Part shown: positions 12,325 through 13,941 of the stretch, one piece after another
Layout: every line of letters starts with the position of its first letter
Numbering within the stretch: the first letter of the stretch is position 1
Source: a virus
Lineage: Duplodnaviria; Heunggongvirae; Uroviricota; Caudoviricetes
Direction: 5' to 3' (one strand)
DNA: 64,000 bases
Virus record (IMG/VR): IMGVR_UViG_3300029702_000002
The notes under the pieces: generated by a model
Seen by the model: the letters and a program-made list of their open reading frames with translations, nothing else
The model's database searches: none
Told to the model about the DNA's origin: nothing
Program-made: the position numbers and the translations under genes

Positions 12325-12711
12325 ATGTCTGATAACAAGATTGAATTTATAGAAAGTCGCTACGCTGCTTTTATCGCAGGGTTGATTGAATCCTCACCTA
12401 TGAGCCAGGCCCAGATAGCCAAAACAATTGGGTATAAAAACGCCAACAACCTTTCTTTAATTAAAAGCGGCAAAATTCCTTTGCCTATCGATAAGGTTCG
12501 TCCGCTGGCGCTGGCACTGGGCATTGAGCCAAGTCGTCTTATGATGATGGTGCTGGAAGAACGCCAACCCGAACTCGCAGCATTTTTATACAAAGAAGGC
12601 ACTGCTCCTCTTAACGAGGACGAAAAACAGGTTCTTGCTGCATATAACGAGCGATTCGGTAAAGAGAAAGGCGCATCACAAAAGGTTGTTGAGGCCATAA
12701 AGTCTCTATGA
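12325..12711 (+). CDS. XRE/Cro-CI-type helix-turn-helix regulator
   Basis: 128 aa; SQAQIAKTIGYKNANNLSLIKSGKIP matches the HTH_XRE pattern; convergent with and ending inside the recombinase gene 3' end. Confidence 0.55.
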   Translation: MSDNKIEFIESRYAAFIAGLIESSPMSQAQIAKTIGYKNANNLSLIKSGKIPLPIDKVRPLALALGIEPSRLMMMVLEERQPELAAFLYKEGTAPLNEDEKQVLAAYNERFGKEKGASQKVVEAIKSL

Positions 12712-13809
12712 AAAATTTACACGAATAAGCTCTGTTGATAGACGATCTCCCTTAAATTTGTGGTCAATTTCGTCTAAATCCGGTTGCTCTACGATTGATG
12801 CGATGTACGTCGAGAAACTTTCTAAGGCGTCTCGCATCTCGTCCATATAATCGTGCCGGTCGTAGACCCGATCTATCCCCTCAAGACTGTGGTTCATGAT
12901 TTTACGTGATACCTCCTGGCTTATGCCTAATGCTGGGAAGTAACTACGCGCAGTACGGCGCAAATCTCGGGGTGTAAATGGCTCAAGCTCCATCAGTTCT
13001 GGTCGTTCCAGAATACGACGTAATGCCTGGGCTATTGCCACTTTAGACATAGGAAGGTCTTTCCCGATTTTTTTATTCGAAGGCACGAGCCACTGGCTGT
13101 CTTTACCATATTCGAACAACTCTTCAATACAAGTGCGCATTAATGAGCTTAAAGGCAGAGAATGCTCACGGGCAGATTTGTTCCTCTTGCCTTGATTCCA
13201 AACCCCACGCTTAAGATTGAACTCACTTTTTTTAGCCCGCAGTACTTCGTCAGGTCGTCTTGCGGATACAAGACATAGCCTGGCCGCCCATTTTGTACCA
13301 GCACACACATTGAAGTAGTCCCATATATTCCAGAACACCCATACCTCTGCGTCGGTCAGCTTCCGCTCGCGAGGTGTGGGCTTTGCGCCACCGGCAACTT
13401 TGTTAAGTGACATATCGTTTAACGGTGACACGTCTATCATCCCCTGGAAGGCGCACCAGCTAAGGAACTGCTTCATCAGAGAGAAAACGCGGCGGCCCAT
13501 AACAATTTTGCCATCCAGTATTAGTGGGTTGACCAGTTGGTTCACCATGAACCTATTAATGTCACTTACTTTTACATCGGCAATGTGCGGCAAAACATGT
13601 ATCAAAATACAATGAACAGCGATCTCTGGCCGACGTCTGGTTATCAGCAGAGATAAGCGAGTGAATAACATGAATGCGTCCGAGAATCTCATGTCATTGC
13701 TGACCTGGGAGATCATAACGGCCTGCATTTGAGATGCTCTTTCGAGATACTCTATCGCCTCTTTTGAGGTGTTCTCCGCAGCGCGTGCTCTGTCAAAGCT
13801 ATTTTTCAT
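12706..13809 (-). CDS. tyrosine site-specific recombinase (integrase / resolvase family)
   Basis: 367 aa; C-terminal catalytic-region pattern LRRTARSYF ... MNHSLEGIDRVYDRHDY (R, H-x-x-R-like and Y nucleophile arrangement). Confidence 0.7.
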   Translation of the reverse strand: MKNSFDRARAAENTSKEAIEYLERASQMQAVMISQVSNDMRFSDAFMLFTRLSLLITRRRPEIAVHCILIHVLPHIADVKVSDINRFMVNQLVNPLILDGKIVMGRRVFSLMKQFLSWCAFQGMIDVSPLNDMSLNKVAGGAKPTPRERKLTDAEVWVFWNIWDYFNVCAGTKWAARLCLVSARRPDEVLRAKKSEFNLKRGVWNQGKRNKSAREHSLPLSSLMRTCIEELFEYGKDSQWLVPSNKKIGKDLPMSKVAIAQALRRILERPELMELEPFTPRDLRRTARSYFPALGISQEVSRKIMNHSLEGIDRVYDRHDYMDEMRDALESFSTYIASIVEQPDLDEIDHKFKGDRLSTELIRVNFS

Positions 13810-13906
13810 ATGACAATCACCGAGTTACGCCGATGCACTGTATAAGTAAACAGTATATTAGGCATAGATTCTTATAGGATCAAGAGTAAAAGTAACTCAT
13901 TTTCAG

Positions 13907-13941
13907 CAATGATTCCATACATAGTAGGTATGGAATCATTG
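13907..13941. promoter_or_regulatory. lox/dif-like site: perfect 14-bp inverted repeat with 7-bp spacer
   Basis: CAATGATTCCATAC (13907-13920), spacer atagtag, GTATGGAATCATTG (13928-13941); 98 bp upstream of the recombinase start. Architecture matches tyrosine-recombinase core sites (for example loxP 13-8-13). Confidence 0.5.

Follow-up and report, generated by a model that had tools for sequence, protein, structure and literature searches.

The tyrosine recombinase TnpI of Tn4430 has its site, IRS, just upstream of its gene, and this site consists of an inverted-repeat core and additional single copies of the motif, which adjoin the core (within ~100 base pairs (bp)) and form a defined resolution complex. 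Rci acts on sfx sites with a single conserved 12-bp arm and a 7-bp spacer, and the polar KOPS motifs are placed symmetrically around a recombination site and have a sequence unlike that of the dif arms. The integron integrase IntI is reportedly under LexA control. Here, we describe a locus at positions 12,325 to 13,941 of a 64,000-nucleotide stretch of DNA from a virus of the Caudoviricetes (IMG/VR record IMGVR_UViG_3300029702_000002; hereafter, the window), in which the tyrosine recombinase gene int lies beside a palindrome with the properties of a recombination site, and single copies of the palindrome arms lie farther out on both sides. The region is 100% identical to the E. coli plasmid pRHB14-C22_3, 92-99.9% identical to pECOH89 and the phage-plasmid Cyrano, and 73-78% identical to elements of Klebsiella, Enterobacter, Salmonella (pHCM2) and Yersinia pestis (pMT1). 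Based on these identities, the source element is assigned as an E. coli phage-plasmid of the SSU5 supergroup (SSU5/pSLy3-type). The element family was found in 252/5,426 complete E. coli genomes and also in many Klebsiella and Enterobacter plasmids.

In the reading that we favor, to which we give somewhat better than even weight, the palindrome is the cognate core site of the adjacent recombinase, and the two form a self-contained recombinase and simple-site module that would keep the plasmid monomeric. The features on which this reading is built are the following:

12706..13809, minus strand: int, encoding a tyrosine recombinase of 367 amino acids (aa) with core-binding and catalytic domains and no arm-binding domain
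13907..13941, no strand: core site, a perfect palindrome with a left arm of 14 bp, a spacer of 7 bp and a right arm of 14 bp
13907-13920: left arm, CAATGATTCCATAC
13921-13927: spacer, ATAGTAG, asymmetric
13928-13941: right arm, GTATGGAATCATTG

A perfect 14-7-14 inverted repeat upstream of the recombinase had been pointed out in an earlier note on this DNA, and its coordinates as well as its distance from int, i.e. 98 bases past the start codon at 13809, were recovered exactly when re-read from the sequence. In each arm, the conserved portion comprises the 12-mer GTATGGAATCAT and an additional T. A simple calculation puts the chance expectation for a perfect inverted repeat of 14 bp, with the spacing held fixed, at ~2e-4 occurrences per 64 kilobases (kb), and the 14-mer at ≤2 mismatches has six matches in the window versus 0.54 expected from shuffles, none of which gave six. 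The window holds nine close-range inverted repeats, the palindrome included, and several of the others resemble GC-rich terminator hairpins. The exact 12-mer occurs five times, namely in both arms and at 7878-7889 (minus strand), 16978-16989 (plus strand) and 17991-18002 (plus strand). The possibility that the complete genome holds further full sites was followed up in a whole-plasmid sequence of ~109 kb, assembled from the window and the closest record, which differs from the window by a 13-bp indel; neither a further full site nor an extra copy at ≤1 mismatch was found, and all copies within that threshold fall between window positions 7878 and 18002.

Two other explanations for the palindrome were considered and rejected. 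A scan flags a stem and T-run on the plus strand as a terminator or RNA hairpin, yet no upstream plus-strand gene stops there, the T-run begins 7-8 nucleotides past the stem, and the single outlying copies are unable to form a hairpin. An extended -10 promoter (TGGAATCAT) would lose its essential -11 A in the sister clade, in which the arms read GGAGTCAT.

The evidence that carries the favored reading comes from ~165 related loci, which we gathered from plasmids, phages, species-representative genomes, IMG/VR and metagenomes. In these loci, a 12-7-12 palindrome lies 18-280 bp upstream of every intact int, with Int identity down to 42%. A motif-free search for the best inverted repeat with a 6-8-bp spacer put the 12-7-12 element on top in 80/80 metagenomic loci, always with a spacer of 7 bp, and the site was likewise recovered by a motif search, at an unchanged position, in all intact loci from plasmids, phages and genomes. 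The site is missing only at a 5'-truncated int (L083) and at an outlier with 27% identity; the repeat is present in all syntenic relatives, the absence from which the earlier note had named as a ground for giving up its proposal. Spacer length is constant at 7 bp in all ~165 relatives. The spacer sequence, however, is lineage-specific (ATAGTAG, TTAATAG, CTTACAA, TTGGTAG, TTATATA, TCTTTAG and others) with T at position 2 and A at position 6 as the only near-constant positions, and in some lineages the spacer orientation relative to int is reversed. Arms of the type GTATGGAATCA go with Int proteins at 56-100% identity (pSLy3, SSU5_pHCM2, pMT1, pKpn and pCAV groups, Chimaeribacter- and Nissabacter-like elements), and arms of the type GTCTGGAGTCA with Int proteins at 42-54% identity (Xenorhabdus, Providencia, Erwinia, Pantoea and environmental contigs). 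In the change from GTATGGAATCA to GTCTGGAGTCA, two identical positions are altered in both arms, and the arm classes track the protein tree; a Photorhabdus element has hybrid arms. Recombinases of this kind need matching spacers between partner sites, without reading the spacer sequence. A tyrosine-recombinase core site is predicted to have constant spacing, a spacer of free sequence and arms that co-vary symmetrically, as is the case here. The proposal that the repeat has this architecture and is tied to the adjacent recombinase is, in this way, supported by linkage down to 42% identity, by the 7-bp spacer and by the concerted change of the arms.

The GTCTGGAGTCA-arm clade includes an Erwinia plasmid and a 507-kb Pantoea megaplasmid, neither of which has phage genes or a neighboring gene for a helix-turn-helix (HTH) protein, and the int and site module is also present on metagenomic contigs of up to 643 kb. 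The module stands alone on the non-phage Erwinia and Pantoea plasmids; gene and site, therefore, move as a self-contained pair.

Int itself matches Pfam PF00589 (2.9e-10, above the cut-off) and the PHROG 1 integrase family (4.8e-47). In 42 homologues, the catalytic residues R185, K211, R284 and Y316 are invariant and H307 is nearly so. The nearest kin outside the family are P4-type integrases with 26-34% identity, which have the RDLRRT and YDRHDY motifs in common with Int. The PF13356 domain (Arm-DNA-bind_3) of the P4-type integrases is without counterpart in the Int alignment, and against the NCBIfam model PRK09692 (NF007246) Int scores 33.9 bits, below the cut-off of 434. Because Int lacks PF13356, a simple site is expected; consistently, the arms and spacer are within the 11-14 bp and 6-8 bp, respectively, of simple sites, and the recombinase has no arm-type domain. 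An AlphaFold2 model of Int (predicted local distance difference test score 85), in which the N-terminus forms three short helices, has lambda Int (1z1b) as its best match among PDB structures in Foldseek (E 1e-6). Lambda Int, Tn1549 Int, Xer and IntI are all matched with a Foldseek probability of 1.00; Cre structures rank below these (E 0.03-0.4), and the Int sequence has no match among PDB sequences at E up to 1, hence no detectable homology to Cre. While the earlier note had likened the system to Cre/lox, kinship with Cre is not supported, and Int is closer by sequence and fold to lambda-, P4- and Tn1549-type integrases. Int is thus a two-domain enzyme outside the Cre family that probably acts in a Cre-like manner. 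In the literature searched, we found no description of the site, of LexA control of int, or of an assigned role or site for this "integrase".

The 12-mer is also present in single copies away from the palindrome, as listed here together with a degenerate copy inside int:

7878..7892, minus strand: half-site GATGTATGGAATCAT, inside dnaE, codons ~84-88 (C-M-E-S-L)
13192..13203, minus strand: degenerate half-site GTTTGGAATCAA, inside int, coding V-W-N-Q
16975..16989, plus strand: half-site GATGTATGGAATCAT, intergenic, beside the tRNA cluster; the 15-mer is invariant and its flanks diverge
17988..18002, plus strand: half-site GATGTATGGAATCAT, over the ATGA stop/start junction of two small minus-strand genes

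The two right-hand copies had been seen before and are real, with the first coordinates previously off by one, and the copies in dnaE and in int had been missed. The genes at the third half-site, 17999-18214 (71 aa) and 17850-18002 (50 aa), lie downstream of the DNA ligase gene and both match PHROG families. Most other lineages have the exact 11-mer GTATGGAATCA for the copy inside int. What the outlying 15-mers have in common with the palindrome arms is limited to the 12-13-mer GTATGGAATCAT(T); the leading GAT of the 15-mers is not in the arms. Several observations indicate that these copies are under selection at the DNA level. In relatives of 73-80% DNA identity, the 12-mer is unchanged in dnaE, beside the tRNAs and where the 71-aa and 50-aa genes meet, although its flanks diverge. 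The dnaE codons TGT ATG GAA TCA lack any synonymous change over seven lineages while adjacent codons vary, and the CMESL loop is not conserved in the DnaE proteins of Xenorhabdus and Providencia, both of which are without the motif. The outlying copies are kept down to 56-60% Int identity, with the dnaE copy present in a Nissabacter-like locus and not in two pCAV-type loci.

The layout of the copies is constant in ~85 loci: the left copies are on the minus strand, in dnaE at ~-6 kb where present and in int at -0.7 kb, and the right copies are on the plus strand, 1.0-1.5 kb apart and, depending on cargo size, 1.2-6.8 kb from the site. In other words, every outlying copy points away from the palindrome. 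No conserved second arm was found at 7 bp from the outlying copies, the 7 bp that adjoin them vary among relatives, and no rearrangement between copies was seen, their order and orientation being identical in these loci. Int is the most economical binder of the outlying copies because they are identical to the arms; given this identity, their conservation at the DNA level and their polarity, the outlying single arms are most likely extra candidate Int-binding sites.

Other origins of the copies were rejected. Coding constraint is not the cause, as the copies code for CMESL, MIPYI and VWNQ in differing frames and orientations and DnaE proteins without the motif do not conserve the loop; two copies lie inside continuous, homologous open reading frames (ORFs) and are, therefore, not scars of nested insertions; and none of the host-factor consensus sites considered (Tus/Ter, Fur, IHF, Cra, NarL and others) is known to fit the 12-mer. 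Minus-strand hits on the right side in three loci (L025, L038 and L061) are 1-mismatch matches within a cargo gene. Extra copies in cobT, in the pHCM2 lineage at ~-3.2 kb and as ATCGGGAGTCA in Xenorhabdus and Providencia, are matches with 1-2 mismatches in an acidic low-complexity linker and are probably due to chance.

As separate observations, the 11-mer ATCGGGAGTCA, which is akin to the arm GTCTGGAGTCA, is found twice in each of the Xenorhabdus and Providencia loci (L090, 481-491 and 13076-13086; L091, 6584-6594 and 13122-13132), in orthologous positions and again pointing outward. One copy falls in an acidic low-complexity stretch of CobT and may be a coincidence; in these genera, the 11-mer also recurs in intergenic DNA after dnaB. 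In the truncated IMG/VR locus (L083, 8906-10094), a replacement deletes int codons 1-53, the site and the cargo (window 13557-16154), and both right-hand half-sites remain. Just to the right of the first right-hand half-site, the intergenic DNA at 16990-17360 is dense in long inverted repeats (e.g. GTTGTGAAA/TTCACAAC, CACAACGTTGAGGCC/GGCCTCAACGTTGTG, ATGGGCGGTCA/TGACCGCCCAT and GGAGGGAAC/GTTCCCTCC) and may be a structured RNA or an origin-like element.

Between int and the palindrome lie two further elements:

13855..13883, minus strand: putative sigma-70 promoter of int, predicted from sequence, with -35 TTGATC (13883-13878), a 17-bp spacer and -10 TAATAT (13860-13855)
13838..13853, no strand: LexA (SOS) box CTGTATAAGTAAACAG, directly downstream of the int -10

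The promoter hexamers are kept in relatives. The box CTGTATAAGTAAACAG is the sole CTGT-N8-ACAG of the window and is kept in the E. coli, pHCM2, pMT1, Klebsiella and pCAV1099 lineages. A LexA-type box is found ≤130 bp from the site in 138/153 loci with GTATGGAATCA arms versus 1/22 loci with GTCTGGAGTCA arms; because of this distribution, LexA control of int looks like an adaptation of the phage-plasmids.

On its other side, the palindrome borders on a zone of exchange, which begins with these features:

13942..13965, plus strand: loosely conserved flank with a G-rich stretch, a T-run and then, at an invariable distance from the right arm, (G)AAATCTG
14060..14596, plus strand: first gene of the variable region, 178 aa, with transcription leading away from the site

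Members of the E. coli clade have identical DNA to the left of the site; on the right, at least eight unrelated sequences start directly after ATCATT. The right flanks that begin at the arm comprise >20 distinct sequences. pMT1 and pHCM2 cease to be homologous at the arm: pMT1 (L004, 11235-17003) carries the F1 capsule operon caf1R/M/A/1 in a slot that opens exactly at the right arm, and the operon replaces ~5.8 kb of pHCM2 sequence, the first right-hand half-site included. Homology between pECOH89 and pHCM2 restarts exactly at the first right-hand half-site. In other elements, the cargo at or near the right arm comprises a YafO toxin gene, an IS26 multi-resistance region, and a colicin/pyocin DNase gene with an immunity gene and ParE/Phd; at one locus, Tad2-like and Acb2/Tad1-like anti-defence genes lie slightly farther out in the same right-hand region (cargo loci: L090, 6884-9666; L099, 7043-8784; L006, 11278-12209; L007, 11356 onward). 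Because the same right-flank family occurs beside several different spacers, the point of exchange is placed between spacer and flank. The flank element (G-rich, T-run, GAAATCTG) emerges from position-specific counts over 29 distinct right flanks, and ATTCTGAG lies beside the site in the Pantoea megaplasmid too; this flank may be part of a rightward promoter or an accessory site. In relatives, the slot of 14060-14596 is held by a fast-evolving family of 163-184-aa proteins without a Pfam match and with 35-72% identity between lineages (e.g. L008, 9078-9632; L005, 11365-11856; L018, 11242-11733). The 178-aa ORF of the window shares only a C-terminal motif with this family, so that its relationship to it is uncertain.

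Based on these data, we suggest a model in which one Int monomer would occupy each 12-14-bp arm, two occupied sites would synapse, and strands would be exchanged at the edges of the 7-bp spacer. Directly repeated sites, whether in multimers of the plasmid or in the terminally redundant ends of phage DNA after injection, would then yield monomer circles, as with Cre/loxP of P1. In the phage-plasmids, with int under a sigma-70 promoter with a LexA box, Int would be made mainly in the SOS response or upon prophage induction, and this timing would coincide with RecA-driven multimerization and lytic replication. Int bound at the site may also regulate the int promoter and the rightward promoter because the site lies between the two. 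Lastly, the site is a recurrent junction for swaps of right-hand gene modules among related elements. The best reading of the biological role, we infer, is thus a Cre/lox-like function on the plasmid, i.e. multimer resolution and perhaps cyclization of injected DNA; this role fits because Int has no arm-binding domain, the location is strictly on plasmids, and the module stands alone on non-phage megaplasmids.

Several points weigh against this model. No product of recombination was seen in the relatives examined: sites are not duplicated, the DNA between copies is neither inverted nor deleted, and each plasmid has a single full site. Binding of Int to the arms and to the outlying copies is something we infer from sequence. 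The His-I position is Arg (R281) throughout the family, so that five of six catalytic residues are canonical. A plain Cre/lox model does not account for the outlying half-sites; SOS-repressed expression, as suggested by the LexA box, is odd for a housekeeping multimer resolvase; and homology would also end at the site if the palindrome were simply the last constrained element before a hypervariable region.

We, therefore, weighed the model against four other explanations. It is doubtful, though deserving of some weight, that the palindrome is mainly an operator through which Int or another conserved protein controls divergent promoters, with recombination rare or absent. A distance of 23 bp separates the site from the int -35 downstream of it, and the conserved T-run/GAATCTG follows closely on its other side; the first rightward gene of Cyrano (CYRAN_43) is expressed 723-fold above the prophage background in lysogens; and copies that lie singly away from the site are more in keeping with a DNA-binding regulator than with a recombinase. 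However, 7-bp fixed spacing, a free spacer sequence and arms of 12-14 bp typify a tyrosine-recombinase core, conservation of the catalytic residues is strict, and the non-phage plasmids keep the module, with the site as close as 18 bp to int, and have no such divergent gene. Moreover, the roles as an operator and in recombination are compatible with each other. A second explanation, in which an SOS-induced Int captures and swaps right-hand modules that are expressed from the outward promoter, much as in an integron, is unlikely in our view. The LexA box in the int promoter, the >20 right flanks with one flank family beside differing spacers, the nature of the cargo, from caf1, YafO, IS26 resistance and colicin/pyocin DNase with immunity at or close to the arm to the Tad2/Acb2-type genes farther out, and the exact point at which pECOH89-pHCM2 homology resumes are all in line with it. 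In its fullest form, which we hold to be just as unlikely, Int would be triggered by SOS to excise or capture the right-hand block via the palindrome and possibly via one-armed sites, while the polar half-sites would form an Int-dependent architecture of loops, a roadblock or a loading array; to our knowledge, half-site architecture of this kind has not been described for any tyrosine recombinase. If true, such an exchange platform would explain the capsule, toxin, anti-defence and resistance genes beside the right arm. Against it, no attC-like cassette ends, second full site or cassette arrays were seen, much of the "variable" region is syntenic (grxA, phoH, gp49 and tRNAs), the first gene is often not foreign DNA but an orthologue that has diverged, and the border of a conserved island would show such junctions in any case.

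It is distinctly improbable that the 12-mer is read by a protein other than Int, such as the HTH repressor, a backbone protein or a host factor, with its proximity to int being incidental. This explanation draws on the putative status of Int binding, on outlying copies that sit in replication genes and on a polar layout that recalls replication- or translocase-related motifs. Nevertheless, it is int, and not the HTH gene, that the site accompanies on the non-phage plasmids; the arms change along with the Int clade, the HTH gene has a different palindrome, all copies are retained in pECOH89, which is without the hypervariable rightward gene, and no host-factor consensus is known to match. Most improbable of all is that the site is the phage attachment site (attP) for chromosomal integration, even though the gene is annotated as an integrase and its nearest sequence kin are the P4-type integrases. 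None of the 255 int occurrences in the 5,426 complete E. coli genomes is chromosomal, and the full site is present in only 7 of 185,579 species-representative genomes, always beside int and never in a chromosome. A search of large contigs for chromosomal integration gave only plasmid-size places for P0002 and P0006. Integration is unlikely because the site is never chromosomal and always beside int, because Int is without an arm-binding domain, and because phage-plasmids of this group have been reported as exclusively extrachromosomal (PMC9600943).

The remaining neighbor of int is the HTH gene:

12325..12711, plus strand: gene for a 128-aa HTH protein, convergent with int and overlapping the int 3' end by 6 bp

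The HTH protein has a weak Pfam HTH_19 match and belongs to PHROG 8 (transcriptional regulator); its Cyrano homologue CYRAN_45 is annotated as "putative repressor" (of the prophage) and is expressed in lysogens. Its predicted promoter has a -35 TTTACA at 12251, 16 bp of spacing and a -10 TAATAT at 12273, and is followed by the palindrome GGTAAGCACTTACC, the conserved core GTAAGCACTTAC of which lies within 12280-12293 and is unrelated to the arm 12-mer. Close to the divergent 70-aa operon, at 12102 and 12168, there are further GGTAAG/CTTACC half-sites, which together with this palindrome are probably the operator set of the prophage repressor. Thus, the suggestion that the recombinase has its own HTH regulator was not borne out: the protein is a putative prophage repressor with its own palindrome GTAAGCACTTAC, and its gene is absent beside int on the non-phage plasmids that retain the site. 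The genes int and HTH converge with a 6-bp overlap (12706-12711), and the 70aa-cobT-AAA-dnaE operon lies beyond, to 4624, on the int strand. Because int runs head-on into the HTH gene and the operon beyond is on the same strand, SOS-driven transcription of int could, as a speculation, hinder expression of the repressor and read into the replication operon with a role in the lytic switch.

Along the element, dnaE, the AAA ATPase gene, cobT and the 70-aa gene, all on the minus strand, lie left of the HTH gene (plus strand), followed by int (minus strand), the palindrome and the variable block; beyond the latter come grxA, a 302-aa ORF, tRNA-Ser/Thr/Asn, a chain of small genes and the DNA ligase gene. 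Further observations concern these neighbors. Between tRNA-Ser and tRNA-Thr, a sub-threshold Rfam match to the STnc100 small RNA (44.1 bits versus a gathering score of 47) lies at 16395-16563 on the minus strand. At 17563-19533 (minus strand), the genes for DNA ligase and the 71-, 50- and 96-aa proteins form an ATGA-overlapping, translationally coupled chain, of which the 50-aa gene (PHROG 6302) is unannotated in pECOH89 and in the closest plasmid record. The AAA_5 ATPase gene of the Xenorhabdus relative (L090, 14481-16802) has a LAGLIDADG_3 domain, which is probably an intein or a homing endonuclease insertion.

What is new here is the conserved LexA box in the int promoter, the invariant polar outlying half-sites and the swap zone right of the site, as these appear from sequence comparison. 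The element family includes pMT1 of Y. pestis and pHCM2 of Salmonella Typhi. Definition of the site gives it a testable maintenance function and marks the exact edge of the region in which capsule, toxin, anti-defence and resistance genes are exchanged. Half-sites that are unchanged inside coding sequence are a clean, unexplained case of selection at the DNA level. Moreover, the compact recombinase/site pair is unrelated to Cre and comes with naturally occurring spacer variants and a second specificity of the arms, and it might be tested as an orthogonal tool for genome engineering.

Compared with known systems, Int is closest in sequence, outside its family, to the P4/CP4-57-type integrases with their RDLRRT and YDRHDY motifs, and differs from them in being without PF13356, in showing no integration into tRNA genes and in never being chromosomal. 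As in TnpI/IRS, the site lies upstream of the recombinase gene and has a core and extra single copies of the binding motif; here, however, the extra copies are 0.7-6 kb away, on both sides and partly inside genes. Polar motifs flank the site as in XerCD-dif/KOPS, except that here the polar motif is the arm itself. The one-armed outlying sites are reminiscent of Rci/sfx shufflons. Unlike in shufflons, no inversions were seen in the ~85 loci, and the 7 bp beside the outlying arms are not conserved. The similarities to integron IntI/attI comprise a LexA box, conserved and predicted, over the recombinase gene, a site directly upstream, and variable genes that are read outward. By contrast, the site here is a plain palindrome, and there are no attC sites or cassette arrays: each plasmid has a single full site, repeated cassette ends were not seen, and the region is largely syntenic. 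The fold match of Int to IntI (2a3v) is also weaker than to lambda Int. None of the systems compared explains the half-site layout, and we know of no counterpart of the conserved outlying half-sites in P1. With respect to Cre/loxP of P1, Int is not a Cre homologue (Foldseek E ~0.03 versus 1e-6 for lambda Int), the spacer is 7 bp instead of 8, and the int promoter has a LexA box. In both systems, a recombinase gene lies beside a simple site with inverted arms of 13-14 bp around an asymmetric spacer of 7-8 bp, arm-type sites are absent, the host is a phage-plasmid that does not integrate, and the expected roles are multimer resolution and cyclization.

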